This document shows, in pieces, positions 8,072 through 62,887 of a DNA stretch of 64,000 nt (the stretch's first letter is position 1; each line of letters begins with the position of its first letter). The notes beneath the pieces are model-generated. The model saw nothing but the letters and a program-made list of their open reading frames with translations. It made no database searches and was not told where the DNA came from. Where the stretch lies: positions 4,624-68,623 of the forward strand of contig JBAZKN010000004.1 in assembly GCA_041650755.1 (NCBI GenBank). The letters are read 5' to 3'. Both the position numbers and the translations under genes were made by a program. The stretch is from Patescibacteria group bacterium (GTDB lineage: Bacteria > Patescibacteriota > Patescibacteriia > UBA1558 > GWA2-36-10).

Positions 8072-8099
8072 AAAAAAGACCGTTTCCGCAGAAACGGCC
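8072..8099 (-). terminator. Rho-independent terminator for the GC-rich ORF 8128..8679
   Basis: GACCGTTTC-CGCA-GAAACGGcC hairpin flanked by an A-run on the plus strand, which is a T-run on the minus strand. Confidence 0.5.
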
Positions 8100-8127
8100 T
8101 GTGCGTGCGCGAAACCACGAGGGCCCG

Positions 8128-8679
8128 CTACATGGGAATGCGCTCTGACTTGAAAGGCGGAGCCTTGTCGTCGGGCACCGGCAGCTGCCAAGTCCAGAAG
8201 CTGGAGTCCTCCAGAGAGGCGAGAGTGTGTCGAGCCGAAGGATCGGCTATGTGCAGGGAACCGGGCAGCAAGATCGAGCTATTGCCCAGCAGCGCATCTC
8301 TGTCGCTGCTGCAAAACCGCGACAACATCTGTCGAACCTGCTCAACTGTCAAGGTCTCGTGCTCGACGGCCAACAAGGCACCCTCGATGACACAAGTGAT
8401 CTCCAGACAGGTGCCATTGTGGCCGTGAAACTCTTGCACACAACCACCGGGCAGAATGGTGTGGATAGCCTGAGCCTGGACATTGAGGCGACCGATGATC
8501 AGCCCCTTGAAATAGGACCTGACCTCCACGCCGCCCTTCTGAATCATCTGGACGACATGGAGCTCACCGCGGACATCGTCTGGCTGCAAACGACACGAGC
8601 GACCAATATCTTCCCTACCCAAGCGATGATCAATGACGAGCCAACCAAGAGGTGGTTGAGTATACAGCATCGAGCTCAT
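8128..8679 (-). CDS. Hypothetical protein encoded in GC-rich island 1
   Basis: 183-aa ORF with GGGAGGG SD 5-6 nt upstream and a terminator downstream. High GC with a G/C-rich third codon position. The strand choice is uncertain because long ORFs exist on both strands. Confidence 0.35.
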   Translation of the reverse strand: MSSMLYTQPPLGWLVIDHRLGREDIGRSCRLQPDDVRGELHVVQMIQKGGVEVRSYFKGLIIGRLNVQAQAIHTILPGGCVQEFHGHNGTCLEITCVIEGALLAVEHETLTVEQVRQMLSRFCSSDRDALLGNSSILLPGSLHIADPSARHTLASLEDSSFWTWQLPVPDDKAPPFKSERIPM

Positions 8680-8896
8680 TGCAACGCCCTCCCGTAAAGT
8701 TATTCTTGGAATGTTCGAACGTGGACATATTAAATTATAATATCTTTAGAAAATTGTCAATAATATCCAATGTTTTTTATATAGTCAAATGACTTTACTT
8801 TTTCTTTTAAAAATGGGAAAATTAAAATAGTTTCTAAGAGACATATCGGCTGCACTGGCAACAATCGTAAACTCAAACCCTGCCTCAAATAAAAAA

Positions 8897-10390
8897 ATGA
8901 CTATCTACCAAAAAATATTACAAAACCAAAAAGCATCTTCGCTTTTGATTATAATATTTTTTTTGCTACTAGCCTTTTTTTATTTATATCAACTAAACAA
9001 ATTGCCCCTGACTGCCTACGATGAAGCCATTTATGCCCAAGTGACACGCCAGACACTAGTTAGCAGCCAAATAACAACCCTGTATAATTTTGGCCAAGCT
9101 TGGTTAGAAAAACCACCGCTCTATTTTTGGCTAGCCATGACGAGTGTGAAAATTTTTGGCGATAGCGAAGCTGCTTTTCGTCTGCCCTCAGCCCTGCTGG
9201 CTATTTTGAGTTTTTGTCTGGTGTACCTGGTGACAAAAAAACTTAGCGGCAAAAAATCACTAGGTCTGATGGCTGCTTTTATTTTGGCCATCATTCCTTT
9301 TTATTATATTACTGGTCGGCAAGTCAGACTGGATGTGCCGCTGACCGCTATCATTCTATCTACCATCTATGTCTTTATTTTGGGTTGGGATAATAAAAAA
9401 TATTTACTAGGTATCTTCCCGCTAATGGCTTTGGCTGTACTGACAAAAAATATCGTTGGACTATTGGCCATACCCTTTGTCCTGATCTTTAGCCTAATCT
9501 ACAAACAGTGGTCTTGGTTAAAAAGTAAATATTTTTGGCTCGGTCTGCCCATCGGACTATTACTGGCCATACCCTGGCACTGGCGCCAGTATCAGCTTTG
9601 GGGAAATAATTTTTTGGAAACTTATCTTGGCTTTCATGTTTTAAACAGGTTTAGCAGCGGCTTTGGTAATGTCACACAAACCAACCCTTTAAGCTATTTT
9701 CATATTCTTTGGGATTATAGCTGGCCCTGGTGGCAAATATTTATTTTGCTATTAATAGTGGCCCTCATATTAAAAAAATTCTACCACACAGAAAAATCCT
9801 GGCGCTTGCTGCTGACCAGCTGGACTATCATGGCTTTTGTGATTTTTTTCTTTTCTTTATCCAAAACCAAAATATCCAGCTATCTACTACTAATGTATCC
9901 TTATTTAGCAATTGCCATAGCCGTCAGCCTATCTTACCTCTGGCAAATCATAAAACATAAATGGCTAAAAATACTGTATCTATTGTTCACTGGCGCCCTC
10001 TGCCTCTACTCTATCTTACTTTGTCTGGGGCAAGATGATCGTATCCTGAAAAATTTTCACTTCTTTTATGATTATAATCTGCGCGATATTGGCCGCTTGA
10101 TCAACTTGGAAAATAAACCTAATGCTAAAATCTATTATTTGTCCGGGCCGCCAGCTGAAACTATTAATTTTTACGCTCAACAACCGGTCAGCCAGGTTTC
10201 AGTCGACCAAGAAACAAAAACCATCAACCTGTCGGGGCCAGCCTTTATTTACCTCTATGACAGCAATCTGCCCCTATTTCTAGATGATGCCGGCCAAGTA
10301 AAAAAAGAATTTAGCTCTATCAGAGTAAAATATTCCCAGGACCATATACTCTTGCTCTATGGTGAACAGGACATTGTCTTACATTTTTAA
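8897..10390 (+). CDS. GT-C fold membrane glycosyltransferase, ArnT/PMT (GT39/GT83)-like
   Basis: About 11 TM segments, with YDEAIYAQ in the first periplasmic loop. Confidence 0.55.
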   Translation: MTIYQKILQNQKASSLLIIIFFLLLAFFYLYQLNKLPLTAYDEAIYAQVTRQTLVSSQITTLYNFGQAWLEKPPLYFWLAMTSVKIFGDSEAAFRLPSALLAILSFCLVYLVTKKLSGKKSLGLMAAFILAIIPFYYITGRQVRLDVPLTAIILSTIYVFILGWDNKKYLLGIFPLMALAVLTKNIVGLLAIPFVLIFSLIYKQWSWLKSKYFWLGLPIGLLLAIPWHWRQYQLWGNNFLETYLGFHVLNRFSSGFGNVTQTNPLSYFHILWDYSWPWWQIFILLLIVALILKKFYHTEKSWRLLLTSWTIMAFVIFFFSLSKTKISSYLLLMYPYLAIAIAVSLSYLWQIIKHKWLKILYLLFTGALCLYSILLCLGQDDRILKNFHFFYDYNLRDIGRLINLENKPNAKIYYLSGPPAETINFYAQQPVSQVSVDQETKTINLSGPAFIYLYDSNLPLFLDDAGQVKKEFSSIRVKYSQDHILLLYGEQDIVLHF

Positions 10391-10403
10391 GCAGCCAAAA
10401 AAT

Positions 10404-10432
10404 AAAAGCCAAAAATTGGCTCTTTATTTTTC
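10404..10432 (+). terminator. Rho-independent terminator
   Basis: AGCCAA-AAA-TTGGCT hairpin followed by a T-run, located after the stop at 10390. Confidence 0.45.
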
Positions 10433-10487
10433 TAAAATTTGATGCTAAACTCTAATAGCTTTCTAATAAAAATAACTAATATTATTT

Positions 10488-10868
10488 ATGAGTAAAAAAA
10501 TTTTGTTGTTGGTAGCTTTAGTCCTGATGTTCGGCGTCAGCGGCTGCGGCCGACCAAGCAACAATGATGCCAACGGCAATATTGGCGATCAAAATCTGAA
10601 CATGATCCTGCCGGATAATACTGTGCGAGTCAGAATAAAAGACTCCCAATTCATTTCCAAGACAGCTATTATCAAGGCTGGCATGACAGTATTATGGGTC
10701 AACCAAGACAATGTTGACCACCAAATAAAATCTACCACCTTTAGCTCACCCAAACTAAAACCCGGGGACACCTTCAGCTACACCTTTGATAATGTTGGCG
10801 TGTATGATTATGTTTGCTCGCTCCACCCAACGATGGCCGGCTCTATATCAGTCCAAACGCAAGAATAA
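10488..10868 (+). CDS. Cupredoxin (type-1 copper, amicyanin/plastocyanin-like) lipoprotein
   Basis: Lipobox VSGC. C-terminal CSLHPTM (Cys-x2-His-x2-Met) plus an upstream His. Confidence 0.65.
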   Translation: MSKKILLLVALVLMFGVSGCGRPSNNDANGNIGDQNLNMILPDNTVRVRIKDSQFISKTAIIKAGMTVLWVNQDNVDHQIKSTTFSSPKLKPGDTFSYTFDNVGVYDYVCSLHPTMAGSISVQTQE

Positions 10869-10879
10869 AAATAATAAGA

Positions 10880-11425
10880 ATGGATCGAGAGATTTTGGAT
10901 CAAAAAATAAGAAAGGTGCCCAATTTTCCTAAAGACGGGATTCTATTTTATGATGTCACTACTTTATTTGAAGACAAAGATACTTGGCGACAGTTGATCG
11001 ATGAGCTTTGCTGGCCATATCAGGATAAAAAAATAGATAAAATAGTCGGCATTGATGCTCGCGGATTTTTATTGGCAGCCGCCATGGGCTACAAACTGGG
11101 CACCGGTATTTCTTTGGTCCGTAAAAAGGGCAAATTGCCCTACGCCACAAAACAAGCCACCTATGAAAAAGAATATGGCCCAGATACGGTAGAAATGCAT
11201 GCCGACACTATTCGACCAGGAGAAACTGTTTTGATAGTTGACGACTTACTAGCTACTGGCGGGACAATATTGGCTGCCATTGATTTGGTGGAACAAATGC
11301 AAGGAAAAATTATCGGCCTTGAATTCATTATTAATTTGTCATTTTTACCCGGCTTAAAGAAACTGCAAGCCAATGGATTTGTGCCACATTATTTAATCGA
11401 TTATGATAATGAAAAAATTAAATAA
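10880..11425 (+). CDS. apt: Adenine phosphoribosyltransferase
   Basis: LIVDDLLATGGT PRPP-binding motif. Real start is MDREILD at 10880, inside the longer predicted ORF. Confidence 0.8.
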   Translation: MDREILDQKIRKVPNFPKDGILFYDVTTLFEDKDTWRQLIDELCWPYQDKKIDKIVGIDARGFLLAAAMGYKLGTGISLVRKKGKLPYATKQATYEKEYGPDTVEMHADTIRPGETVLIVDDLLATGGTILAAIDLVEQMQGKIIGLEFIINLSFLPGLKKLQANGFVPHYLIDYDNEKIK

Positions 11426-11436
11426 TTATACAAAAG

Positions 11437-12255
11437 ATGACTAGTGCAAAAATAAAAGTTGGTATCATCGGTGGCTCTGGACTGGACAACCCTGACCTAC
11501 TAACCAGACAAAAATCCATCGACTTAGACACGCCTTTTGGCCAACCATCATCTAGTATCAATACCGGAAAAATTGGCGAGGTAGAAGTGGCCATCATTGC
11601 CCGACACGGTAAAAACCATTCTTTGATGCCAGGCAAAGTCCCCTATCAAGCCAATGTCTGGGCGCTCAAACAAGTCGGCTGCAGCCATATTTTAGCTACT
11701 ACCGCTTGCGGCTCGCTGCAAAAAAATTTTAGACCAGGCGACCTCGTTTTTATCGATCAATTTATTGACTTCACCAAACACCGCAACCCAACCTTTTACC
11801 AGGACCATGTCATTCACACGCCCATGGCTGATCCATTTTGCTATAATTTACGCCAACGATTGACGGCAACAGCCAAGGAGCTAAAACTGCCACACCATTC
11901 TCAAGGCACCATCGTCACCATTGAGGGACCCCGTTTTTCTACCCGGGCAGAATCAAAAATGTTTCGCTCTTGGCAAGCAGATGTTATCAATATGTCTACT
12001 GTACCAGAAGTGACTTTGGCTAGAGAAATAGGTATTTGTTATCAATCTATCGCTATGGTCACCGACTATGACTGCTGGAAAGAAAAAGAAGCGCCAGTCA
12101 CTTGGGAAATGGTCATGGAACAAATGAATAAAAATATTGGCAATATCAAAAAATTATTACTGGCTGTCCTGCCTAAAATAGATTTTTATGCCTGCGACTG
12201 CAAAAAAACTACGGCCGACATGGCTGAATACGAAACCAAAAAACCCGTCCAATAA
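11437..12255 (+). CDS. mtnP: S-methyl-5'-thioadenosine phosphorylase
   Basis: KVGIIGGSGL N-terminus and the PNP/MTAP family pattern throughout. Confidence 0.75.
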   Translation: MTSAKIKVGIIGGSGLDNPDLLTRQKSIDLDTPFGQPSSSINTGKIGEVEVAIIARHGKNHSLMPGKVPYQANVWALKQVGCSHILATTACGSLQKNFRPGDLVFIDQFIDFTKHRNPTFYQDHVIHTPMADPFCYNLRQRLTATAKELKLPHHSQGTIVTIEGPRFSTRAESKMFRSWQADVINMSTVPEVTLAREIGICYQSIAMVTDYDCWKEKEAPVTWEMVMEQMNKNIGNIKKLLLAVLPKIDFYACDCKKTTADMAEYETKKPVQ

Positions 12256-13934: not shown

Positions 13935-13938
13935 TTAT

Positions 13939-17503: not shown

Positions 17504-17550
17504 AACCTTATATTAAGGTAAATAGGCATTTTAGTCAAAATCAAACCTAA

Positions 17551-17578
17551 AGAAAAAGCGCCCGATCGCTCGAGCGCT
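17551..17578 (-). terminator. Terminator for the GC-rich ORF 17589..18026
   Basis: AGCGC...GCGCT hairpin followed by T-run on the minus strand. A TTGACT-N17-TAATAT promoter-like sequence for dnaG lies directly downstream. Confidence 0.4.
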
Positions 17579-17588
17579 CCCCATGTGT

Positions 17589-18026
17589 TCAGGAGATCTG
17601 GTAGAGAGGTGTGCCGTGCCGAGAGCGTCGGCACTGCACCACTCCGCTACTCTGCAGAGCATCGAGCACCTGATCCAGTTCCTTCTGGCTGACCTGGCGT
17701 CCATGACGACGGAGCATCCGAAGAATCTCGCCAGATGGTCTGGCATTGCTCTGCCGCAGCAAGACAGCAAGAACTGCATCACGGCTCAAGCTCGGTTGAG
17801 AAGGCTGCGGCGACACAGCCACTGCGGCAACGCGCCGACCACCCGTAGGGCCAAGATCCACGTAGGCACCCACGCCCTTTGGACCACAGCTGGCCTGTGT
17901 GGGCTGAGCTAGCTTCGGTTGTTGCTCACGTCGAGCTCGCTCGACTCTGCCTTGCCTGGCCAGAGCGATGCAACCCCAGACACCCAGCGCCAGAATGACC
18001 AACGAAAGCGCTATTGAGAACCACAT
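17589..18026 (-). CDS. Hypothetical protein in GC-rich island 2: N-terminal TM helix plus a C-terminal winged-helix-like domain
   Basis: 145 aa with GGGGGAGGTG SD. One TM (WFSIALSLVILALGVWGCIAL). C-terminus EILRMLRRHGRQVSQKELDQVLDALQSSGVV is wHTH-like. Visibly GC-rich. Confidence 0.45.
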   Translation of the reverse strand: MWFSIALSLVILALGVWGCIALARQGRVERARREQQPKLAQPTQASCGPKGVGAYVDLGPTGGRRVAAVAVSPQPSQPSLSRDAVLAVLLRQSNARPSGEILRMLRRHGRQVSQKELDQVLDALQSSGVVQCRRSRHGTPLYQIS

Positions 18027-18148
18027 CCTTAGAACACCTCCCCCCTTAAATTATGGGTGAAAATTGACTGTTGATGTACACCTGATGTGAAATCAGAAAA
18101 AATTATAATATTATATATTATTAATTCTGTCAACCCACAAGGCAACCA

Positions 18149-18616
18149 TCACCTCGCGGATGGTATTTCCAAATCTAATAAATATTGCTTTCTTTTTAAT
18201 CCCCCCGCATAACCAATTAAATCTCCTTTGCTGCCCACCACCCGATGGCAAGGAATGACTATGGCTATGGAATTTTTGTGGACTGCTTGACCGACTGCCC
18301 TAGCAGATTTAGGCCTACCAATAGCCAAAGCTAAATCTTGATAAGAAATAACACTGCCATAGGGTATGCCCTTTAGACAATGCCAGACCGCGGTCTGAAA
18401 TTCTGTGCCAGAAATAACCATGGGTAAAAAAAATTTTTTCCTTTTTTGAGAAAAATATTCCTGCAGTTGTCTGGCTGCCTGCCGAGAAATTTTATTAGCA
18501 GAACCGATGCGCCTAGTAGCCGTGGAAACAAAATCAATACCAACCACAAATTGGCCTGCCACCACAATGCGGAGCAGGCCAATCGGCGTTTCCAGATAAC
18601 TAAAATATTCCTTCAC
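18149..18616 (-). CDS. ogt: Methylated-DNA-protein-cysteine methyltransferase
   Basis: VIPCHRVVGSKG active-site motif. Confidence 0.85.
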   Translation of the reverse strand: MKEYFSYLETPIGLLRIVVAGQFVVGIDFVSTATRRIGSANKISRQAARQLQEYFSQKRKKFFLPMVISGTEFQTAVWHCLKGIPYGSVISYQDLALAIGRPKSARAVGQAVHKNSIAIVIPCHRVVGSKGDLIGYAGGLKRKQYLLDLEIPSAR

Positions 18617-20514: not shown

Positions 20515-23500
20515 CTAAAAACTAAAGTTATTTTCAATAAATTCCCTAGTAGCCGGCCCAAAATACCCCGTACCATTTTTTAGTTTTTGCGGATCAAGAA
20601 TCTCTTTTTTATACTTGTTTTGAAATTTGATAAGGGCTGCTTTAGTGGCTCTACCAAAAAATTTAGTCTCCTGGCCCGGCGAACCCGGCCCGCTACCCGC
20701 TACTATAAATCCATTGGCATTCAAAAATTTTTGTAAATTCAAAACATCATCGCTAAAATCACCTAATTTCATGTCTACAGAAAATGAATACTCGCTATGA
20801 GCAGGTGGTGACACAATGTCTGCGCTACCAATCACTTTTCCCAGAGGATAACTATCCAAATTAACAGCATCTTTGATATCAGACCAAGAAAATCCTTTGG
20901 CCAAAAAAGTTTCTGCATCAACAATGTGCCTTCTATACCCATTTTCAATCAAATATACCGCAGGATCATCCGGTGTTTTGACTAGGCTGCCCTCGGTAAA
21001 TGATGTTGTTTGGGACATTGATGGATTCAATCTATCCAAAGCCAAAATAATTTGATTAACCTTTAATTGCTTATAATTTATCCGCAAATCAGTCTGTCTA
21101 TTACCATCAAGATCAAAGCTCTGAGTCTGATTAGGTGACAAATAAAATATCTCTGCTCCCAGTTGAGCCTTGATAAGCCCATTGTTAGTATCTAATTCTA
21201 AAATTTGCAAATTATATTTTGACTTTGAGTTCTCAAAAGAAAAAACCAAGGGAGAGTTTATATATGTAAAAATGTTCACTCCGGCATCTCCTATATAAGG
21301 AATTTCTCTACTTTGCCCCATGGGCACATAGTAGTCATTTTGTCCGCTACCGGTGCCGCCAAACGTATAACCGGAGACACCACCGCCTCCACAGACAGAT
21401 GTTGATTTGGTTATCGTGACAGCATCGGTTTCTGTGCCGTCGCCATTTCTGTATTTTATTGAATAAGTATAGCTGGTCCCGCAAGAAAGGCTCGTATCTT
21501 GCCAGCTATTGGTAGTAATCCAACCAGAATTTGCGCCACTGCGAGAGAAATAATAGCCGGATGAACCAGAGCTGGCATTATTAAAACTATCTACTGATAA
21601 ACTTACTGTCGATAGACCGGCTGTAGCTGAAAAGCTGGTTGGGGTAGGAGCTAAAGTGTATTTTGATAAGGTAGTCGAATAACTCGATTCATTGTCATTG
21701 CCATCCTTAGCTTTGACACGATAAGTATATTGAGTATTGGCTGACAGACTAGAATCAATGTAAGTAGCCGACGCCTGCCAGGTCGAAGAGTCAGTGGCTC
21801 CGGAGCCACTAGTTGTTTCATCAAACCAATATGGTGTCGCCGATAGACCCGGGTCAGCGTCTGTAGCTGTATTTGCCAAAACGGTCAATTGACTTGCAGA
21901 ATCTGCCGTAACAGATGTCAATCCAATATTGGTCGGCGCAGTCGTATTTTGCACCAAAGCAAATGTGTGAGTAGAATATCCGCCAGTATATGTAAAAGTC
22001 AGGTTGCCAGAAGAATCTGCTTTACATATACCACTCGTACAAGCAGCATTGGTGACGGCTGTCGTGGAAGCCACACCGTCTACTTGAAACTGATAATATT
22101 TATTGGCCGCTAAATCACCAATCGTATAAATAGTAGTAGTGGCTACAGTAGAAGTAGCTGTCCATTGCTTATTATACGTACCGCTAGTCAGCCACGAGTC
22201 AATATTGATATCCATCCATTGAGATTGATCACCAGTCGTAAAACTACTACCCCACGCTGGAGTTACTGCCAAATCAGCAGTTGTTCCTGAGGTCGTTTCG
22301 TGATCCCTGAATTTACCATTGGCATAAATTCTAGCACCAGCGCCAATATCAATTTCATCAGTACCTATGGTGTGATGGTCATAATATAGATATTCAGCAA
22401 AATCGCCAATCAATGTATAGCCAGCAGTATTAGGGTGAACATTGCCGTCAGTATCATAATAGCCATCGGGGGAGGCTGACTGCCAATTAGAATTGAGGGT
22501 CATTTGATCATAATAAGAGTCGCAAGTCCAGCCATGGCTAGTACACTCCGTTTCCATGGCCGCATTAATGGCGGTAACTGATTCATCATCATAGCCATTA
22601 ATATCATTGAGCGTACCTATACCTAACCAAATCGGCGTTGCTCCCCAATCTTCAATTTTTTGCATCATTTCCGAGAGATAATCCACATATTCATCAGTAG
22701 TGGCCGCTGATGGTGATACGGTAGCTAAATTATTAATACCGATGGACAAGAATACTGTGCTCGGACTAGTATTTATCATAACAGTATCAATAGAAGCAAA
22801 TATTTTTTGCATATAAGCGCCGGAGATAGCCGTATCAGCTTGAGTAGCAACGGTCAGGCCAGTTTGACTATTGAATTCTGTTCCTATGGTAGTACTCAAC
22901 ATTATCGAATCGCCAACAAAAGCTACTTTATCAAGTAAAGTTACGCCAGTGCTAGAACTAGGACATTTATAGGCACCAACATCATTACCCGTCCAAGCTG
23001 CTCCAGTTACATCACCACTGGCCGGCAAAGATGCCTGCAGGCCATGGCCGCAAACATATGAACCATTCTGGATAGTAAAATCGTTCGTGGAAGTAGCTGT
23101 AAATTGGGGATCTATAAAATGATTAGTAGCATCGACCTGTTCAAAATGATTATTGCCCGAGATAAATTGTTGATAACCAGAAGCGCGATACCAAACATTA
23201 TTAGTGACATTCCAATAGGCCGGTGTGGCAATAATTTCTGCCGCTATCGCATCTCCCATGGCAAAAGGGCGGTTGTCGGAAGTCGTATCGGCATAAAAAA
23301 TATTATTTTTAAAATTATACGTAGAGCCACTAGAAGCAGCTTGGCTCAGGACTTTTACACTACTAGTAAAAAATGTGCAGTTGGTCGCTGTAAAGTTGGT
23401 AGCGGCATTGAGGTAAAAAAGATAAGTTGTTTGATCATAAAATAAACTGCTTTCAATGGTGAGGTTTGCTGCACTGCTGGTAATAAAAATATAACTAGTT

Positions 23501-26800: not shown

Positions 26801-27055
26801 ATGTATAAATTATATATAATTCGAAGTCTAAAAACAAAAAAATACTACATTGGTATTAGTGCAGATTTGGAGCAAAGGCTACGTCACCATAATAGTGGGG
26901 CAAATAAATCTACTAGAAATGCTAAACCCTGGACAATAGTGTATACAGAGGAATTTAATGATAAAAAATCGGCATGGTTAAGAGAAAGACAAATTAAAAA
27001 ATATAAAAGCGGTGAAGCATTTAAAAAATTAATCAATCGTGGAGAGGTCGCATAG
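26801..27055 (+). CDS. Small GIY-YIG nuclease superfamily protein
   Basis: YKLYIIRSLKTKKYYIGISADLEQRLRHHN matches the GIY-(x10)-YIG ... R ... H(H)N core. 84 aa. Its last 15 nt overlap the tRNA-Ser. Confidence 0.65.
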   Translation: MYKLYIIRSLKTKKYYIGISADLEQRLRHHNSGANKSTRNAKPWTIVYTEEFNDKKSAWLRERQIKKYKSGEAFKKLINRGEVA

Positions 27056-27131
27056 TTGGTCTAGTGCGCTCGCTTGGAAAGCGGGTAGGGTGTCAAAGCC
27101 CTCGCAGGTTCGAATCCTGTCCTCTCCGCCA
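27041..27131 (+). tRNA. tRNA-Ser (anticodon GGA), class II with a long variable arm and an encoded CCA
   Basis: Manual cloverleaf: GGAGAGG/CCTCTCC acceptor, 3-bp D stem, CTCGC/GCGGG anticodon stem with loop TTGGAAA, 17-nt variable arm, TTCGAAT T-loop, G discriminator, CCA. Confidence 0.85.
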
Positions 27132-46024: not shown

Positions 46025-46101
46025 GTATTTGTTTTAGAAAATAATTCTAAAAAAGGATAACACAAAAAAACCCGACCGTCAAGAGCTAAGGCAAACTAGG
46101 C

Positions 46102-46137
46102 AAAAATAAAAACCCGAGCCGCTTAAGACAGCTCGGG
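46102..46137 (-). terminator. Terminator for the small GC-rich ORF 46159..46350
   Basis: CCCGAGC-N11-GCTCGGG hairpin with a T-run on the minus strand. Confidence 0.5.
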
Positions 46138-46158
46138 CCTGTTTCCTGCCCTGCCGCG

Positions 46159-46350
46159 CTAGACGCCGGGCAGATGCTGATCAGGGCCACCCGACGAACC
46201 GATATCTGGGAAAATCGGTCCAGGTCGGCGGGAACGAGGCAGTACTTCTGGAGGCGGTTGCCCATCGCTGATTGGAGTAGTAGAACCCGAACAGTCCGGC
46301 TCAATACCGGGGTCTGAGCCAGAACCAGTTGAAAAGCATTTATCTTCCAT
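46159..46350 (-). CDS. Small Gly/Ser/Pro/Asp-rich protein (63 aa) in a GC-rich island
   Basis: AAGGAGAGG SD immediately upstream of MEDKCFSTGSGSDPGIEPDCSGSTTPISDGQPPPEVLPRSRRPGPIFPDIGSSGGPDQHLPGV. Low-complexity, with 2 Cys. Terminator downstream. Confidence 0.4.
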   Translation of the reverse strand: MEDKCFSTGSGSDPGIEPDCSGSTTPISDGQPPPEVLPRSRRPGPIFPDIGSSGGPDQHLPGV

Positions 46351-46472
46351 ATGGCCTCTCCTTGCAGTGCTGGAACGAAACGCTACGAACACAAAACCAC
46401 TATAAAGCTTATATTAAAAAACATAAAAAAGCAAAATTGCTTTAAATCATAAATTTCTGCTATATTTACCGC

Positions 46473-48041
46473 ATGCTAATTAATACCAAAAAAATCCCAA
46501 ATTCTCCGGGCATATATTACTTTTTAAATAAGGCCAATGAGATTATTTATATCGGCAAAGCCAAAAATCTGCGTAGCCGAATTGCTTCCTATTGGCAAAA
46601 AACAACTGAACTGACTGAATACAAACAACAAATGTTGGCAAAAATTGCCCACATTAGATATACCCTGGTAGACAATGAAACCGAGAGCCTGCTACTTGAG
46701 GCCAGCCAAATAAAAAAATATCAACCAAAATATAATATAGTCCTCAAAGATGATAAAAATTGGGGTTATATAGTGGTGACCAATGAAATATTCCCGCGCA
46801 TCATTATCACCCATGGACGGCAAAAAAGACGCGGGCAATATTTCGGCCCCTACACCTCTACTCTGTCAGCTAGAACCATGGTCCGGCTACTGCATCGACT
46901 ATTTTCTCTGTATACCAAAAATAGCGATTTGGTCAAAAAAAATGGGCAAGTATTTTTAAAAGAAAAATTTGGCGGCTTGGATACCAATCAACAATTGATC
47001 AGCCAAACTGAATATCAGAAAACTATTTTAACAGCCAAAAAAATCATCAGCGGCCAAACCAAAGAATTGTCAGCTGCTCTGCGCTCCCAAATACTGGCTG
47101 TCAGCGCCAAACAAAACTATGAATTGGCGCAAATAAAAAAACAGCAGCTCGAGGCTCTGGAAAAAATAGGGCAAAAACAAAAAGTAATTAGCTCGCCGCG
47201 CCTCAACCAAGATGTCCTAGCCCTAGCCCAAACACCGGAACAGGCAGTCATCACGGCCATGCAAATCCGCCGGGGTATTCTGGGTGATAAGCTGAATTTT
47301 TTTATAAAAAATCCCCTGCACTTATCAAGCGAGGAGATTTTGACTGATTTTATCAATCAGTTTTATAGCCAGCGGATAGACATACCCGCTAAAATCATAT
47401 TGCCAGCTAGTATCAGCAGAAAAAATATTATCTTGGCAAAAAAAATAAAACTCTTGGTGCCAAATGGTGGAAAAAATCTAGCCCTCTTAAAACTAGTGCA
47501 AAAAAACGCCCAAGATTATCTAGCAAAAAATATCGGACGCGGGGCCGAACAAAAGCTTCTGGAATTGCAAAAACTCTTGTCAACTAGTCATTACCCGCAA
47601 CGGATCGAAATTTATGATATCTCCAATATTCAAGGGAGTTTTGCTGTCGGCGCTATGGTGGTCTTCACTGCCGGGCAAATAGATGCCGCGCAATATAGAT
47701 TGTTTAAGATAAAAAATACTGCTGGGCCCGATGACCCGCACATGCTGGCCGAAGTTTTATTACGCCGCAGCCGGCACCATGAGTGGCCGGAGCCAGACTT
47801 AATCATCTTGGACGGCGGCAAACCGCAACTGAATACTGTGCTGCAGATATTGCCTCTGACTTGGAAAAATCGGACAATATCCTTAGCCAAAAAGCAAGAG
47901 GAAATATTTTTGCCTGGCAAAAAGTCCCCCCTGACTCTATCCAGCCGCGATCCGCTATCTTTATTCATCCAAAACATGCGCAATCAAGCGCATAAGTTTG
48001 CCATCAAAAATTATCGTAAATTGCACCGAAAAGCCATTTAA
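46473..48041 (+). CDS. uvrC: Excinuclease ABC subunit C (short form)
   Basis: N-terminal GIY-YIG (GIYYFLNKANEIIYIGKAKNLRSRIASY), UvrBC motif region and an RNase H-like endonuclease domain. At 522 aa, the C-terminal HhH appears reduced. Confidence 0.8.
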   Translation: MLINTKKIPNSPGIYYFLNKANEIIYIGKAKNLRSRIASYWQKTTELTEYKQQMLAKIAHIRYTLVDNETESLLLEASQIKKYQPKYNIVLKDDKNWGYIVVTNEIFPRIIITHGRQKRRGQYFGPYTSTLSARTMVRLLHRLFSLYTKNSDLVKKNGQVFLKEKFGGLDTNQQLISQTEYQKTILTAKKIISGQTKELSAALRSQILAVSAKQNYELAQIKKQQLEALEKIGQKQKVISSPRLNQDVLALAQTPEQAVITAMQIRRGILGDKLNFFIKNPLHLSSEEILTDFINQFYSQRIDIPAKIILPASISRKNIILAKKIKLLVPNGGKNLALLKLVQKNAQDYLAKNIGRGAEQKLLELQKLLSTSHYPQRIEIYDISNIQGSFAVGAMVVFTAGQIDAAQYRLFKIKNTAGPDDPHMLAEVLLRRSRHHEWPEPDLIILDGGKPQLNTVLQILPLTWKNRTISLAKKQEEIFLPGKKSPLTLSSRDPLSLFIQNMRNQAHKFAIKNYRKLHRKAI

Positions 48042-55121: not shown

Positions 55122-55520
55122 ATGATTGGACAACTGCCTCATTATCAGGTCTATACTAGACTCAAGCCATCCAAAATTCATGGCGTGGGTGTTTTCGCTA
55201 TCCGCCATATACCAAAAGGTGTGCGTATTTTCTTGGGAGAAAAAACTCAAATAGTTTGGATAAAAGAATCTACTATTAAAAAACTTAGCCCGGAATACCG
55301 CCGACTTTATGATGATTTTTGTTTATTAAAAAAAGGCCGTCTAGCTTGCCCGGCAAATTTCAATCAACTGGCTCCTGGCTGGTATCTAAACCACTCCAAA
55401 AAACCAAATGTTGCTCTGGATAAAAAAATGGATTTTTTTACTCTCCGCAACATTCGTAAAGGAGAGGAATTGACTGTTGATTATACTACTTATTCTGAGC
55501 AACCAGCGCCAAAAAAATAA
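55122..55520 (+). CDS. SET-domain protein (putative lysine methyltransferase)
   Basis: GVFAIRHIPKGVRI, NHSKKPN and EELTVDY motifs. Confidence 0.65.
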   Translation: MIGQLPHYQVYTRLKPSKIHGVGVFAIRHIPKGVRIFLGEKTQIVWIKESTIKKLSPEYRRLYDDFCLLKKGRLACPANFNQLAPGWYLNHSKKPNVALDKKMDFFTLRNIRKGEELTVDYTTYSEQPAPKK

Positions 55521-57478: not shown

Positions 57479-59072
57479 AAATAGTAAAATAATTGATAAA
57501 ATTATTTACGAGCTGGCTAGCCAAAAATATGCCACTGAATTAGATTTTGCCAAAAGCTTTCGACGGGCTTTTAGCAAGCATCGTTTGGCTCCCAGTACTA
57601 AGGCTACCTTGATTTCCCGCTATCGTCAATTAGTCAAAGCCAAAAAAATAAAAGCTACGGCCGCCTTTGAACAACTTTTGAAAAAACGGGCAGTGCGCAC
57701 CCTGTCAGGCGTTTCAGTCATTACTGTCTTATCCAAGCCATTCCCCTGCCCCGGGTCTTGCGTATATTGCCCGACTGAACCAAAAATGCCAAAAAGCTAT
57801 TTGAGTAACGAGCCGGCAGCTGCTAGGGCAAAAATGAACTTATTTGATGCCCAGCGGCAAGTTACGATGCGCATTCAGGCCCTAGAAAACAATGGGCACC
57901 TGGTAGATAAGCTGGAAATTTTGGTTTTGGGCGGCACTTGGTCTGTCTACCCCAAAAAATATCAGGATGATTTTATTCGTGATTGTTTTTACGCGGCCAA
58001 TACATACGCCAAAAAAACCAAGCGGAAAAAATACGGCTTAGGGCGTGAACAAAAAATAAATGAAACCGCTAAATACAAAATTATCGGCCTGACTTTGGAA
58101 ACTCGACCAGATTTTATCACCCCAAAAGAAATAAAAAACTTGCGCCGCCTGGGCGCTACCCGCATTCAACTTGGCATCCAACATACCGATGATAAGATTT
58201 TAAAAAAAATAAAGCGAGGACACACTGTCAAACAAAGTATTGCTGCAACCAGACTGCTAAAAGAGGCTGGTTTCAAAGTCGATCATCACTATATGCCAGA
58301 CCTGCCCGGCAGCACTCCCCAAAAAGATTTGGCTATGTTTAAATATGTTTTTTCTTCCCCTGACTTACAGCCCGATCAAATAAAAATCTACCCTTGCGTG
58401 GTCAATCAATATGCTCAAATATATCAATGGTACAAAAATAAAAAATACAAACCCTACACTATTAAACAATTAAACAATTTACTGTTATCAATTAAGCAGT
58501 TAGTACCGCCCTACGTGCGCCTTAATCGCTTAATTCGCGACATCCCTCAAAACAGTATCATAGCCGGCAACAAAATCACCAATCTACGGCAATACCTGCA
58601 AGCCGAGCTGGCAAAAAAAGGAAGGAGTTGCCAATGCTTGCGTTGCCGGGAAATACGCCGGTCCAAAGATAGAGATATGCGGCTAGTCAAAAGGCAATAC
58701 GCCGCCTCTGACGGCCAAGAAATTTTTTTGAGTTTTGAAAATAGAAACAGAACAAGAGTCTATGCTTTCCTACGTTTGCGTTTTAACGATAAAAATTTTT
58801 CCCCGCTCTTTCCGGTACTAAAAAACTCTGCTCTAATACGAGAACTGCATGTCTATGGACAGATGATACCGGTCTATCAAGAAAATTCGGATGATGAAAT
58901 CGGTGCTAATCAGCATCTAGGCCTAGGTAAGCGCTTGATGGCAACAGCTGAAAAAATAGCCAAAAAAAACGGCTACCGAAAAATAGCTGTAATTTCCGGC
59001 ATTGGCGTGCGCAATTACTATCGTAAACTCGGCTATAAATTGCAGGACGGCTACTTGACTAAATCTCTATAA
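57471..59072 (+). CDS. Elp3-like radical SAM plus GNAT protein (tRNA modification / acetyltransferase)
   Basis: CPGSCVYC (CxxxCxxC) radical-SAM cluster motif and a C-terminal GNAT-like domain. 533 aa. Confidence 0.65.
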   Translation: MDKNSKIIDKIIYELASQKYATELDFAKSFRRAFSKHRLAPSTKATLISRYRQLVKAKKIKATAAFEQLLKKRAVRTLSGVSVITVLSKPFPCPGSCVYCPTEPKMPKSYLSNEPAAARAKMNLFDAQRQVTMRIQALENNGHLVDKLEILVLGGTWSVYPKKYQDDFIRDCFYAANTYAKKTKRKKYGLGREQKINETAKYKIIGLTLETRPDFITPKEIKNLRRLGATRIQLGIQHTDDKILKKIKRGHTVKQSIAATRLLKEAGFKVDHHYMPDLPGSTPQKDLAMFKYVFSSPDLQPDQIKIYPCVVNQYAQIYQWYKNKKYKPYTIKQLNNLLLSIKQLVPPYVRLNRLIRDIPQNSIIAGNKITNLRQYLQAELAKKGRSCQCLRCREIRRSKDRDMRLVKRQYAASDGQEIFLSFENRNRTRVYAFLRLRFNDKNFSPLFPVLKNSALIRELHVYGQMIPVYQENSDDEIGANQHLGLGKRLMATAEKIAKKNGYRKIAVISGIGVRNYYRKLGYKLQDGYLTKSL

Positions 59073-59153
59073 AATATATACTATTGAGTTGATCTCTGTA
59101 CACTAGGCGATCAGGCTAAAAAGGCCACTGCCCATAGGGAAAGGAGCCCCAAG

Positions 59154-59471
59154 ATGCCACGACGAGGCAGAAGAAATCGCTTCCACTTCAGTCCATTGGA
59201 CTGGGTAGGAAGCCTGACCCCAGACGAAGCAGATGCCCTGCTGGCACACATCCATGAAGTCACGCCGCAGGACAACAGTCTCGCATCTCAACGCATTTGG
59301 GTGATCAATCTTCTGATCCTCCAGCCGGCGGTCGTAAGCCGGGGCTACATCAGCCAGAAGCCCAGCCATCAGAGGCTTTTGCGGGTTTTTGGCATGACAC
59401 CCAAGCTAATCGAACAGCGTCTGTGGCGACTTTGGCAAGAGGTCTGCCCAGCAGAACTCCGGGTTGGCTGA
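59154..59471 (+). CDS. Hypothetical protein (105 aa) in a GC-rich island
   Basis: GGAAAGGAG SD, high-GC codon usage and a strong terminator downstream. Possible HTH-like segment RLLRVFGMTPKLIEQRLWRL. Confidence 0.4.
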   Translation: MPRRGRRNRFHFSPLDWVGSLTPDEADALLAHIHEVTPQDNSLASQRIWVINLLILQPAVVSRGYISQKPSHQRLLRVFGMTPKLIEQRLWRLWQEVCPAELRVG

Positions 59472-59487
59472 ACGGGCAGTAACAAAA

Positions 59488-59525
59488 ACGTCCACTCCGG
59501 TCAGGGGCGGACGTTTCTTTTTTTA
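59488..59525 (+). terminator. Rho-independent terminator
   Basis: ACGTCC-N15-GGACGT hairpin followed by a T-run of about 10. Confidence 0.65.
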
Positions 59526-59538
59526 TCTCTATATATTT

Positions 59539-61179
59539 TTATGGCTGCTGATTTGGATTTAATTTACTGCCAGTCGGAGTCGGATTTATATTTAATATAC
59601 TCTTCAAATCCTGCCAATTAGTCACACAGACGTTACTGAGACAAATTCCATTAGTACTAATACCCCTATCGTTTAGAATAAGGCGATTATCTCCGTGCCA
59701 AAAATTCAATGTGCCGCTTAGGCTATTCTGATATATCCCCCAATGAGTATTGTTGCCACTCTGAATATCTAGTTCGGCATTGCCACTAGCGGTCTTAATG
59801 TGTAAATTAGCATTAGGATTAGCAACCCCTATCCCCAACTTACCATATTCTATAAATACATTACCATCAAATTTACCAGCATAATTGTTTACTACACTAT
59901 CACCATAAGCACCTCTACCATATACACCAACACCGCCGGGAGATAGTGTAGACCCCATAACAGCCGTACTATTGGCAGTATTAGCACTGGCCATAAAAGC
60001 TGTGGCTCCATCCACTATTACATTAGCATATATCGCTGGGTTTTCCGAACTAGCGCTGTCTACCCTTAAAGTTCCATGATCAATTGTCAAACCACCATTG
60101 AATAACTTTACTTTGCCGTCAAAATAACCAGCATATGAATTATTGCCAGTGGAAACAGCTCTCAATGCGATCGAATCAGACCCAGCGCTGATAAAATTTC
60201 CAGACACTGAATTTGCTCCCGTTGTTCTAGCAATAAAGGGATTTCTATTGGCTTCCATAGTAGTTAAATTAACATTATCACCATAGAGATTGTAGCCACT
60301 AATATTCAAATTACTGTCTACATAAATGGTGTTTTCTGTGCCGCCGTAATTACCAATTCTATCTAAATATACTTTGCCATCAAAATAACCGGCATATGAA
60401 CTAGTAGGGCTGGCAATACCATAAACAGCATAACTATTGTGACCATTGGCTTGGAAAAACCCGGCCTTGGCATTATCTCCGTTAGCTGCCGCACTAAAAG
60501 CTATGCCATTATTAACCTCGTCCATTACAGTGGATTTACCAGGCAAAGCTGGGCCGATATTAACATTATCTTCAATTATCAAATTTCCATTAAAAACCTT
60601 GACATGACCCTCAAACAAGCCAGCATAAGTAGCGGGAGAAGAAGTATTGTTGGCAAAGGCTCTAATAGCCGCTGAGTTAGCGCCCCAAGCAACAAAACTT
60701 CCGCCAGTAGAATTATTACCCAATACATTTACGCGCAAGGGGTTTCTATTGGCTTCCATAGTAGTTAAATTAACATTACCACCATATAAATAATTATTGC
60801 CAATATTCATGCTGCTATCTAGATAAACCACGTGGTCTAAGCCAGTATAACTGCCTATCCTATAATTTCCAACATCTAAATTGGCTGTCATCGGATTGGC
60901 CACATAAACATTGGTTGATGTAGCGGTGGATGTAGTGGTGCCCGTAATAGATTTTGGTACTACGGTTTTTTTTGTTTTGGTACTAATAGGCAAGGCGGAG
61001 CCCTCTTCAGCTGCAATGGCTATCTTGGCCCAAGCGTCATTATAGCCTTTTAGATAGTTGATGGTTTGCTGGGCATCACTGGTGCCAAACAAAGAAAATG
61101 CTTGGCTGTACTGTGGCCAAGACAAGACAATGCTTAGATTAATGATTAAGGCAAAAGACAAAATTTTACTTTTACGCAT
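59539..61179 (-). CDS. Secreted repeat protein (two internal repeats of about 165 aa), hypothetical
   Basis: Signal peptide. Repeated segments YLYGGNVNLTTMEANRNP... are mirrored by a DNA repeat of about 50 bp at 60238 and 60739. Confidence 0.55.
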   Translation of the reverse strand: MRKSKILSFALIINLSIVLSWPQYSQAFSLFGTSDAQQTINYLKGYNDAWAKIAIAAEEGSALPISTKTKKTVVPKSITGTTTSTATSTNVYVANPMTANLDVGNYRIGSYTGLDHVVYLDSSMNIGNNYLYGGNVNLTTMEANRNPLRVNVLGNNSTGGSFVAWGANSAAIRAFANNTSSPATYAGLFEGHVKVFNGNLIIEDNVNIGPALPGKSTVMDEVNNGIAFSAAANGDNAKAGFFQANGHNSYAVYGIASPTSSYAGYFDGKVYLDRIGNYGGTENTIYVDSNLNISGYNLYGDNVNLTTMEANRNPFIARTTGANSVSGNFISAGSDSIALRAVSTGNNSYAGYFDGKVKLFNGGLTIDHGTLRVDSASSENPAIYANVIVDGATAFMASANTANSTAVMGSTLSPGGVGVYGRGAYGDSVVNNYAGKFDGNVFIEYGKLGIGVANPNANLHIKTASGNAELDIQSGNNTHWGIYQNSLSGTLNFWHGDNRLILNDRGISTNGICLSNVCVTNWQDLKSILNINPTPTGSKLNPNQQP

Positions 61180-61311
61180 AAATTAAAAAATAAATGATTA
61201 TTAGAATATATAAAAAATCTGCTTTTATTATAGCATATTACCCCCACTAAAAAAAGACTATTGCCAGCCAACGGCTTTATGCTAAACTAAATGGTATAAA
61301 ATAAGAAAAAT

Positions 61312-62550
61312 ATGCTATATTTGCAAAAACAAGATCCAACAGTCGCCAAAATAATCCAAACCGAGCTCATGCGCCAAAGACAGGGACTAGAGCTTATACC
61401 CTCGGAAAACTTTGTGTCCCCAGCAGTGCTTGAAGCCCTGGGCAGTGTACTGACCAACAAATACTCCGAGGGCTATCCCGGAAAAAGATACTATGGCGGC
61501 ACGGAAAATGTTGATAATATGGAGCAGCTGGCCATTGATCGAGCTAAAAAACTTTTTGGCGCAGAACATGTCAATGTCCAGCCACTATCCGGAGCTCCAG
61601 CCAATATCGCCGTTTACTCTGCCTTGCTAGAGCCCGGCGATACTGTCTTGGGAATGGATTTATCGCATGGCGGCCACCTGACTCACGGGCACCCCATCAC
61701 TTGGATGGCCAAAATATTCAATTTTGTCCGCTACAAAACTAGGCCTGATGGCCAGATAGATTATGAGCAAGTGCGCGCCATGGCTCTAGAGCACAAGCCC
61801 AAGCTCATCCTCTGCGGCTATTCGGCTTATTCCCGCGACATAGATTATCAAAAATTTAAAAGCATTGCCGATGAAGTTGGTGCCTTAACTATGGCCGATG
61901 TTTCCCACATTGCCGGACTGATTGCTGCCGGCGAGATGAACAACCCAGTACCGTATTTTGATGTAGTCACCACCACTACTCACAAAACCTTGCGCGGACC
62001 GCGCGGTGGCTTGATCATGTGCAAACAAGTTCTAGCTGAAAAAATAGACAAAGCGGTTTTCCCCGGATTCCAAGGAGGCCCCCATGAGCACAATATTGCC
62101 GCCAAGGCTGTAGCTTTTGGTGAAGCGCTGCAGCCCGAATTCAAAGAGTACGCCAAACAAATCAAGCGCAACGCCAAAATCCTATGCGATACTTTGAAAG
62201 ATGAGGGGTTCAAAATTTGTTTTAATGGCACGGAAAATCATCTAATCTTAGTCGACGTCACGCCGCTTGGCATTGGAGGCAAGCAAGCTCAAAATTTGTT
62301 AGATGAAGTAAATATTACTTGCAACAAAAACATGGTCCCGGATGACCCTAAAAAACCCATGGACCCATCGGGCATTCGCCTAGGCACTCCGGCTTTGACC
62401 ACCAGGGGTTTCAAAGAAGAAGATATGAAAATTGTTGGCCAACTGATTGCCCAAGTATTGAAAAATCCAAATAATGATAATGTTAAAAAAGAAGTGGGCA
62501 AAAAAGTAAAAGAATTGACTGAAAAATATCCTCTTTATATAGAGCTATAA
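61312..62550 (+). CDS. glyA: Serine hydroxymethyltransferase
   Basis: Pyridoxal phosphate (PLP)-binding site region ([15 protein letters not shown]) and the overall family pattern. 412 aa. Confidence 0.95.
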
Positions 62551-62602
62551 GTGCACTTTGTAAAACATCTTCGGAGGGTGTAAAAGAGAGGGGAGGTAGG
62601 CC

Positions 62603-62818
62603 ATGTTCAGATTCTGTTGGCGACACTTTCGCGTAGTCATTGGCCCACTGTTGATCGCTTACGCAAGTCCGATCCTGCCGGTCAAGTGCCTCGCCGGCAC
62701 TCCGACCACCCCGCAGATCATTCTGTCCACTCTGGTATATCTGGCCCTGCTCGGCATCGCCGTGCTTTGGACCCTGCGCTTCGTGTGCAGCGAGAGCTAC
62801 CAGAATGGCACAGTTTGA
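62603..62818 (+). CDS. Small 2-TM membrane protein (71 aa) in a GC-rich island
   Basis: GAGAGGGGAGG SD. High GC. A GGAGGAGC-N6-GCTCCTCC hairpin lies downstream (62835-62856). Confidence 0.35.
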   Translation: MFRFCWRHFRVVIGPLLIAYASPILPVKCLAGTPTTPQIILSTLVYLALLGIAVLWTLRFVCSESYQNGTV

Positions 62819-62887
62819 TCCGCCGCCCCCACTGGAGGAGCGCGCCTGCTCCTCCGTCTTCCAAAGATGTTTTGCGAACAACAAATT

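Follow-up and report, generated by a model that had tools for sequence, protein, structure and literature searches.

Phage morons, associated with Hendrix and colleagues, are said to be extra promoter-gene-terminator units lying between phage genes and often differing from them in composition. Integron gene cassettes are small, mostly single-open-reading-frame (ORF) accessory units, many of them for orphan proteins; they are promoterless, end in attC and stand in arrays next to an IntI integrase. In Patescibacteria, horizontal gene transfer (HGT) is documented, mostly between Patescibacteria and plausibly via competence (PMC12455944). Here we describe a 64,000-nt stretch (hereafter the window, meaning the whole stretch) of contig JBAZKN010000004.1 from a Patescibacteria metagenome-assembled genome (MAG; GCA_041650755.1), in which about eight GC-rich units, roughly 8% of the sequence, lie in the spacers between housekeeping genes. 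They are referred to as islands 1 to 7 (i1-i7, with i4 split into 4a and 4b; Table 1). Island 3 carries a gene for a flotillin/SPFH protein preceded by one for an NfeD-like partner. The compared contigs and genomes are labelled with L-numbers.

HGT islands are known in these candidate phyla radiation (CPR) bacteria, and the architecture found here is closest to that of phage morons, here on a chromosome. Like a moron, each island is an autonomous transcription unit between two genes, of odd composition and without a mobility gene of its own, but it lies between chromosomal housekeeping genes rather than in a prophage, and no phage relatives were found. Unlike integron cassettes, the units have their own promoters, are dispersed and lack end repeats, and no integrase was found. 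The islands described in PMC12455944 are alike in phylum, in their gain mostly from Patescibacteria, in atypical composition and in the proposed competence, whereas the units here are 0.25-2.7 kb long, hold one or two genes and are each complete from promoter to terminator; they are GC-rich in a low-GC genome and occur across diverged lineages, one unit is found at at least three sites, and the donor was not found. In the literature we found no description of GC-rich mini-islands or flotillin in Saccharibacteria/CPR, nor of such a density of units, of promoter-to-terminator relocation among lineages or of persisting high GC.

The window has a GC content of 41.9%, and its 300-bp GC profile shows sharp maxima of 0.55-0.68 at the coordinates named in a first-pass annotation, which had proposed a mosaic of foreign GC-rich islands in a low-GC chromosome. 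The host ORFs (n=52) have a GC of 0.406±0.038 and a GC at third codon positions (GC3) of 0.411±0.058; against these, the island ORFs reach a GC of 0.50-0.64 (z of +2.5 to +6.3), and the flanks of the proposed islands lie at 0.33-0.46. GC3 is 0.88 for flotillin, 0.85 for the NfeD-like ORF, 0.72 for i7, 0.68 for i1, 0.61 for i6, 0.59 for i2 and only 0.44 for i5. Codon choice in the islands is inverted relative to the host. At two-fold sites, C/(C+T) is 0.84 in the NfeD-like and flotillin genes, 0.53 in the small island ORFs and 0.28 in the host, and G/(A+G) is 0.86, 0.76 and 0.31, respectively. The dinucleotide signature, in which base composition is already corrected for, places the flotillin unit at a distance of 257 from the host and the pooled small islands at 206, compared with 60±22 (maximum 133) for host pieces of the same size. 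The small-island proteins as a group are rich in arginine and proline and poor in lysine and asparagine, as expected if they are encoded in GC-rich DNA. GC and GC3, codon choice and dinucleotide analysis thus agree that the islands are compositionally foreign, as had been proposed. The original list of islands holds and comes to about eight small units, except that the proposed island 4 proved to be two units, its overall GC being lowered because an AT-rich promoter splits two GC-rich sub-units, and that the patch before island 1 holds no convincing gene. GC-rich structured RNA genes are ruled out as an explanation, since Rfam at gathering thresholds and ARAGORN gave a single RNA gene in the window, tRNA-Ser (27041-27131), which no island adjoins.

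Judging from predicted signals, each island is a self-contained unit of promoter, Shine-Dalgarno (SD) sequence, one or two ORFs and terminator. The promoter scan was positive for i2, i3, i4a, i4b and i6 (sigma-70-type); the scanned regions contain four 11/12 consensus matches, three of which belong to i2, i3 and i4a and the fourth to groES. By eye, i1 has TTGACA, a 15-nt spacer and TATAAT, and i7 has TTGACT-17-TATAGA, found by eye only, within the 3' end of the upstream gene; no promoter was found for i5. GGAGG-type SD sequences stand upstream of the island ORFs. The terminator scan was positive for i1, i2, i3, i4a, i4b and i5, each with a GC-rich hairpin and then a T run, and inspection by eye gave a hairpin with a T run for i6 and one without a T run for i7. 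The islands thus lie in spacers between intact host genes as minimal expression units, in keeping with the first-pass annotation, which had however taken the promoters at the island edges for host-style ones; in i1 and i3 this AT-rich promoter is part of the cassette itself and not of the host spacer, and comes with a leader conserved in relatives.

Neither an integrase nor a transposase turned up, as had also been claimed, among 30 host ORFs scanned with Pfam or among others with precomputed Pfam labels, and the scanned ORFs include no phage gene. A repeat search across the window gave no common repeats at the island borders. Together with an all-versus-all blastp of the island proteins it rules out a shared cassette family; the only related island proteins are the 27- and 28-aa peptides of island 4a, which are 56% identical. 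The earlier suggestion of a dispersed family therefore fails in the sequence sense, the proteins being unrelated apart from these two peptides. Of the marks of a genomic island, deviant composition and codon usage and presence/absence at a conserved site were seen; a mobility gene, flanking direct repeats, tRNA adjacency in the window and an identifiable donor were not. The combination of promoterless ORF, attC and array beside intI that marks integron cassettes was not found either, no dedicated attC model having been run.

Independent assemblies reproduce most of the islands. A Logan contig (L081) is 100% identical to positions 4086-11838 and spans island 1 with the same junctions, and an ENA contig (L082) matches positions 28043-49788 and spans islands 3, 4 and 5, again with the same junctions, differing from the window solely by a 33-bp in-frame repeat indel in flotillin. 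This tandem repeat (AEGKKAGLLAD, 39187-39285) has one copy fewer or more, which gives 581 aa in the window and 570 aa in L082. For islands 1-5 a chimera is ruled out by these two contigs and by counterparts in relatives, and assembly chimerism is very unlikely as the source of the islands. Islands 6 and 7 are the only ones without independent support: an exact-protein look-up of the 546-aa ORF at 59539-61179 gave no record of a second assembly, and look-ups for UvrA and flotillin gave no record either.

NfeD-flotillin (SPFH) operons, such as yuaF-floT of B. subtilis, consist of a gene for a membrane protein followed by one for a Band_7 protein. Island 3 has the same gene order, in which a partner whose soluble domain lies at the C terminus precedes a Band_7 protein of the ~500-600-aa class with Ala/Glu/Lys-rich coiled-coil repeats. 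The island 3 protein matches Band_7 (PF01145) over residues 29-223 with E=1.4e-24, and scores 178 bits against the FloT equivalog NF058507, for which the cut-off is 700; by these profiles it is best regarded as flotillin-like and not as a FloT equivalog. The upstream partner, called NfeD in the first-pass annotation, has no NfeD profile match in Pfam or NCBIfam (E<0.01), and no profile supports that name. Its homologues precede flotillin in most of 80 fetched loci, and position and architecture agree with the looser label NfeD-like, which we use by analogy. The pair differs from yuaF-floT in that the flotillin lies far under the FloT cut-off, the partner lacks an NfeD match, and the two behave as a mobile unit of foreign composition.

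The same flotillin unit, promoter included, is present at at least three sites in four lineages. L083, a more distant relative of the window (one of its proteins is 50% identical, versus 76% for L171), carries the unit with amino acid identities of 76% for the NfeD-like protein and 69-71% for flotillin, at another site than in the window. The unit also occurs in seawater genomes L084-86 (59% aa) and groundwater genomes L087-90 (66% aa), in both of which it has a GC of 0.55-0.65 versus low-GC flanks of 0.30-0.40; in most other genomes, flotillin GC equals flank GC. The insertion sites are groES/Wzy in the window, an i2-like gene next to dnaG and a DUF5671 gene in L083, and a tRNA gene and dnaJ in L084/L086. 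The promoter and the ~105-nt leader are homologous among the window, L083 and L088, with alignment z values of 21, 14 and 23 versus shuffles (21 for L083 and 14 for L088 against the window), and the leader of L086 is more weakly homologous (z of 2.8 to the window and 5.7 to L083). The 3' untranslated region (UTR) of the unit is alignable too. Given this homology of leader and 3' UTR at differing sites, the whole unit must have moved, from promoter to terminator.

The leader of island 3 is AT-rich and contains a conserved hairpin at ~37237-37263, which is also found in L083 (~9213-9240) and L088. It has some compensatory changes across three lineages and no Rfam match in the window, and it could be a regulatory RNA element. 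At the insertion site in the window, an inverted repeat similar to CIRCE (controlling inverted repeat of chaperone expression) at 37083-37109 (TAGCACTTTGTATTTTAGAGTGCTAA) overlaps the groES promoter (TTGACA-17-TAAAAT, 37123-37095, minus strand); L001 has kept this repeat, and in the window the insertion point of the flotillin cassette lies just beyond it.

Island 1 appeared orphan-like in a word-indexed search, and a full HMMER search then gave relatives of 170-183 aa. These share the metal-ligand motifs expected of cupins, H-x-H...E and a second conserved His, in the form F-H-x-H...E...G...R-H, with F84, H85, H87, E93, G100, R150 and H151 invariant in 7 sequences, and match Cupin_2 near threshold. 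An alignment-based AlphaFold2 (AF2) model had a predicted local distance difference test score (pLDDT) of 67 and a predicted template modelling score (pTM) of 0.68, and all its top Foldseek matches were cupins, though weak (best E=6e-3); a single-sequence AlphaFold prediction was uninformative (pLDDT 31). Motif and model together predict that the i1 product is a small cupin. Matches of i1 to repeat proteins (P0153, P0156, P0157 and P0159; cadherin, WD40) were set aside as spurious.

The positional orthologue of i1 in L173 (46% aa) adjoins a Peptidase_S11 gene whose product is 72% identical to the one in the window. A further relative lies in L176 (38% aa), and its promoter/leader matches that of the window with E=1e-9. 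In L173 and L176 the GC3 of the cupin gene (0.43 and 0.48) is above that of the host genes (0.22-0.33). In L171, in which PMT is 73% identical, there is neither cupin nor GC-rich island beside PMT; on the far side of PMT the gene order is not that of the window. All recognisable cupin relatives with known context are in low-GC genomes, and tblastn found no match for i1 in phages or plasmids. Beside the cupin orthologue of L173, a 34%-GC relative, lies a mini GC island (9555-9850, GC 0.59-0.61). It consists of a strong promoter, an SD sequence, an ORF for 68 aa whose product has a membrane helix at its C terminus, and a terminator, and it has no Rfam match.

The island 2 protein, labelled winged helix-turn-helix ('wHTH') in the first-pass annotation, has no profile match in Pfam, NCBIfam, PADLOC or PHROGs, so that this label finds no support. 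An ORF in L083 (8507-8923) lies on the same side of dnaG, with the -35 element and the dnaG-side flank conserved; it is of the same size and orientation as i2, and both proteins carry a membrane helix at the N terminus. Their C-terminal parts align with z ~4 (p=0.004), which makes the L083 ORF a probable positional orthologue. Its GC is 0.62 and its GC3 0.86.

L001 is colinear with the window over 29.3-54.4 kb, and where the window carries islands 3, 4 and 5, L001 shows nothing but spacers of 316, 187 and 185 bp, respectively; at these conserved sites the islands are thus polymorphic in presence. Relatives do carry counterparts of islands 1, 2 and 3, however, i1 as a positional orthologue, i2 as a probable one and i3 in three lineages. 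To this extent the same segments recur, partly in synteny and with similar composition, in relatives, which goes part of the way towards the refutation that the first-pass annotation had set for its own claim; at least three islands (i1, i2 and i3) are not recent strain-specific uptakes. Both i1 and i3 encode real proteins. In addition, uvrC (46473-48041) is missing beside uvrA in L001 and ogt (18149-18616) is missing at the L083 site; genes of host composition are therefore likewise gained and lost at the island spacers.

Composition is graded among the copies of the flotillin unit, non-coding parts included. In the order window, L083, L087/88, L084/86, flotillin GC3 is 0.88, 0.82, 0.74 and 0.74, and nfeD GC3 is 0.85, 0.83, 0.76 and 0.56. 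The GC of the spacer between the two genes falls from 0.56 through 0.53 and 0.51 to 0.40, compared with 0.30 for host intergenic DNA, and that of the distal leader is 0.52, 0.42, 0.38 and 0.42, the last value (26 nt) being out of order. Raised GC in the non-coding parts argues for foreign DNA at different stages of decay and not for codon-level selection, which in its pure form is a poor fit. Polarised four-fold changes number 27 from GC to AT versus 3 in reverse, a count biased towards that result; the window lineage alone has 12 C<->G, 5 GC-to-AT and 2 AT-to-GC changes.

At four-fold sites in conserved residues, the flotillin copies differ by 0.42-0.56, which corresponds to 68% saturation for window-L083, 83% for window-L087 and 93% for window-L084. 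GC at four-fold sites (GC4) is 0.70-0.91 across the copies and 0.88-0.91 in the window copy. The host genes dnaG and sigA are ~70% saturated between the window and L083, with a GC4 near 0.5. Passive decay after one ancient transfer does not suit the window copy, which is 83-93% saturated against L087 and L084 and still has this GC4. Transferred genes reportedly undergo amelioration, according to the model of Lawrence and Ochman. The flotillin unit resembles that model in its graded fall in GC across lineages, in coding and non-coding parts, and in the excess of GC-to-AT changes; it differs in that GC3 is very high at near-saturated synonymous sites. The syntenic cupin orthologues depart from the model too, keeping about +0.2 GC3.

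The account that we favour, with confidence only a little above even, is that the cassettes come from a GC-rich pool, have spread among related CPR by recombinase-independent insertion and are now losing GC. The pool would have roughly 58-65% GC and be as yet unsampled; as its expression signals would function in CPR cells, the source may be a GC-rich relative or an element belonging to one. Entry into intergenic spacers would have taken place without a dedicated recombinase on several occasions, most plausibly through DNA uptake and then illegitimate or homology-facilitated recombination, whole units would also have passed between related CPR genomes, and resident cassettes would slowly lose GC. 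Several results weigh against this account. The four-fold sites of flotillin are about as saturated as those of host genes and yet keep their high GC4, which forces the assumption that divergence took place mostly inside the unseen GC-rich pool. The syntenic cupin stands about 0.2 in GC3 above the host in three lineages, although four-fold sites of neighbouring host genes are 87% saturated, and the probable i2 orthologues at one locus differ in GC3 (0.59 vs 0.86), which decay over equal age does not predict. Flotillin has amino acids of the low-GC type for its GC3 (GC1 z=-3.5, FYMINK z=+4.7 against 48 homologues), a make-up that would hint at low-GC ancestry but is partly a subfamily trait, the test being confounded by subfamily inertia. 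Finally, no GC-rich donor was found for any island; the word-indexed searches, with flotillin and cupin, covered 5.8 billion proteins, and HMMER, run in full with the cupin, covered 1.84 billion representatives. The nearest flotillin relatives with readable context (59-69% aa) are all in low-GC genomes.

These points also bear on a different explanation, in which the islands are accessory genes that have long resided in CPR genomes and whose high GC is actively preserved or increased in situ; selection on codon or mRNA composition (for example, expression control via host-rare codons) or a GC-favouring process of local reach, for instance biased gene conversion at accessory loci that often recombine, could be the cause. 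Orthologous and relocated copies have raised GC in all lineages examined, although their synonymous divergence nears saturation, an AT-rich promoter and leader is conserved directly beside a GC-rich coding region, no donor was found, the changes in the window lineage are mainly C<->G with few from GC to AT, and the amino acid composition of flotillin is of the low-GC type, all of which suits such maintenance. It is nevertheless doubtful in our judgement, as the non-coding parts of the flotillin unit (0.38-0.56 vs 0.30) fall roughly in step with GC3, which codon selection does not predict, the pooled polarised changes favour GC to AT, and GroEL lacks a codon bias of this kind (GC3 0.47). The known effects of biased gene conversion in bacteria also fall far short of a GC3 shift from 0.41 to 0.88. 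A low-GC Saccharibacteria-like clade would then, somewhat improbably, have kept an accessory set (flotillin operon, small cupin, small membrane proteins) at 57-64% GC over the long term through a unit-specific, GC-favouring process or selection, with whole units relocating without a recombinase; if true, this would mean that a compositional identity specific to certain genes is upheld within a reduced genome. Repeated direct uptake from a present high-GC host cell (for example, an actinobacterium), each island being a separate recent capture, is close to what the first-pass annotation had suggested, and we think it distinctly unlikely. A GC of 57-64% with GC3 differing between islands, the absence of islands 3-5 from the nearest reference genome and the import of DNA of which CPR bacteria are thought capable (PMC12455944) agree with it, but no homologue from a high-GC genome is closer than the CPR copies, the AT-rich promoters and leaders of cupin and flotillin are common to other CPR lineages, i1 and probably i2 have positional orthologues in relatives, and complete genes rather than random fragments exactly fill the islands. 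The suggested uptake from a high-GC donor also finds no support in the nearest readable relatives of flotillin and cupin, all of which reside in low-GC genomes. Cargo or remnants of conventional mobile elements, whether integron cassettes, prophage morons after decay or fragments of an integrative and conjugative element (ICE) or plasmid, may be suggested by the promoter-gene-terminator arrangement, which resembles that of phage morons, and by the tRNA gene that adjoins the flotillin unit in L084/L086. This reading is largely refuted and in our view highly improbable, given the lack of an integrase, transposase or phage gene in the window and of common border repeats, of PHROG or PADLOC matches for the small ORFs, of IMG/VR relatives for flotillin, i2 and i6, and of a tblastn match for i1 in phages or plasmids. 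To an assembly or binning artefact, with GC-rich reads chimerically joined into a low-GC contig, we give next to no credence even though the window derives from a MAG, for two assemblies by other assemblers give four of the islands with identical bases, counterparts of i1, i2 and i3 occur in a low-GC setting in related genomes from different samples, and the inserts are whole genes with host-type signals exactly in spacers.

L173, L002 and L086 have GC-rich single-gene mini islands of their own. The one in L002 (15814-16663), a Saccharibacteria MAG, has a GC of 0.58 and a terminator; by eye, its product seems to be secreted and to bear a PEP-CTERM-like tail, which for this phylum would be a strange feature. 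L007 (CAZSAN010000005.1), labelled Saccharibacteria, has 57% GC, so that GC-rich members or look-alikes exist, and such genomes are candidates for the missing donor pool.

The coordinates of all units, together with the intervals first proposed as islands, are collected in Table 1.

Table 1 Units, predicted features and proposed island intervals in the window
Feature	Coordinates	Strand	Details
Island 1 cassette	8077-8757	-	promoter/leader to ~8757; SD GGGAGGG; GC 0.57
Island 1 cupin-like ORF	8128-8679	-	183 aa
Island 1 terminator	8077-8100	-	terminator scan
Island 2 cassette	17553-18133	-	GC 0.61
Island 2 promoter	18105-18133	-	TTGACA-17-TATTAT, scan
Island 2 ORF	17589-18026	-	145 aa, N-terminal membrane helix
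Island 2 terminator	17553-17582	-	scan
Island 3 flotillin cassette	37180-39867	+	promoter to terminator
Island 3 promoter	37180-37208	+	promoter scan, 11/12 consensus
Island 3 NfeD-like ORF	37379-37978	+	199 aa
Island 3 flotillin/SPFH ORF	38043-39788	+	581 aa
Island 3 terminator	39838-39867	+	terminator scan
Island 4a	42806-43132	-	absent from L001, present in L082
Island 4a promoter	43104-43132	-	TTGACA-17-GATAAT, scan
Island 4a hydrophobic peptide	42961-43047	-	28 aa, paralogous to next
Island 4a hydrophobic peptide	42854-42937	-	27 aa
Island 4a terminator	42806-42822	-	scan
Island 4b	42558-42783	-	
Island 4b promoter	42756-42783	-	TTGACG-16-TATACT with TG
Island 4b possible ORF	42558-42713	-	51 aa
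Island 4b terminator-like hairpin	42580-42592	-	inside ORF
Island 5	46110-46350	-	absent from L001, present in L082
Island 5 ORF	46159-46350	-	63 aa, Pro/Gly/Ser-rich; SD AAGGAGAGG; GC 0.56
Island 5 terminator	46110-46140	-	scan
Island 6	59055-59525	+	
Island 6 promoter	59055-59082	+	TTGACT-16-TATACT, scan
Island 6 ORF	59154-59471	+	105 aa; GC 0.57
Island 6 hairpin and T run	~59488-59525	+	by eye
Island 7	62580-62856	+	SD GGGGAGG; GC 0.57
Island 7 ORF	62603-62818	+	71 aa, two predicted membrane helices
Island 7 hairpin	62834-62855	+	no T run
Patch	4010-4120		GC 0.54; no convincing gene
Proposed interval, patch	4010-4120		GC 0.54
Proposed interval, island 1	8072-8700		GC 0.57
Proposed interval, island 2	17545-18050		GC 0.60
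Proposed interval, island 3	37260-39872		GC 0.62
Proposed interval, island 4	42480-43170		GC 0.50 overall
Proposed interval, island 5	46100-46365		GC 0.57
Proposed interval, island 6	59100-59530		GC 0.555
Proposed interval, island 7	62580-62860		GC 0.60

Apart from i1, the small island ORFs have no match in Pfam, NCBIfam, PADLOC or PHROGs; this includes the i6 protein, for which IMG/VR gave no viral relative. On the lack of PADLOC, PHROG and NCBIfam matches for the small ORFs, and of IMG/VR relatives for i2 and i6, a defence-system or phage origin was rejected. The two short hydrophobic peptides of island 4a bear a resemblance to type I toxin-antitoxin systems, in which such a peptide is paired with an antisense or overlapping regulatory RNA; of these parts, the peptides are the ones seen here. 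The possible ORF of island 4b has no homologues and contains a hairpin, so that its coding status is uncertain; within it lies a G10 tract (42641-42650), a possible site of slippage or phase variation. A 90-aa membrane ORF next to island 4 (42207-42479; GC 0.49, GC3 0.56) is missing from L001 as island 4 is, and could be a stretch of that insertion that is older and has decayed further. The island 5 ORF is annotated in the NCBI MAG as WC465_04240. The patch before island 1 is possibly a remnant; L081 ends within it, at 4086, and strain variation or a repeat may be present there.

The host genes of the window are ordinary bacterial housekeeping genes, among them those for DnaG, sigma-70, GroEL/ES, UvrA, UvrC, RNase J and PPDK. 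The genomes closest by UvrA are the 'Patescibacteria group' MAG L001 (75% aa) and then Saccharibacteria MAGs (60-65%), which points to a Saccharibacteria-like Patescibacteria (CPR) MAG as the host. The episymbiont type of host assumed in the first-pass annotation agrees with this placement, and the lifestyle is presumably episymbiotic. Other host ORFs include a SET-domain protein of 132 aa (55122-55520) and a 1273-aa protein (20515-24336) with beta-helix, GDSL-lipase and peptidoglycan-binding domains. In the last ORF of the window (62867-63727), which is tentatively taken to be folD, the 3' end (63652-63720) is repeated downstream at 63755-63823 with 81% identity.

CPR bacteria have tiny genomes and depend on hosts, which raises the question of how they acquire new genes, and these units bear on it: dense, minimal, ready-to-express units enter between housekeeping genes, and at least one of them moves as a whole between related genomes. 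Foreign DNA is usually AT-rich, and GC-rich islands in a low-GC genome invert that pattern. The products are mostly membrane-associated, which makes them candidates for the cell-surface interface with the host; acting at the membrane or cell surface would be a small metal-binding cupin, an SPFH scaffold together with the NfeD-like protein, and the small membrane proteins and peptides. Should no source exist, the persisting high GC would point to an unrecognised force on gene composition; if the source pool is found, it would reveal the DNA-exchange partners of these episymbionts.

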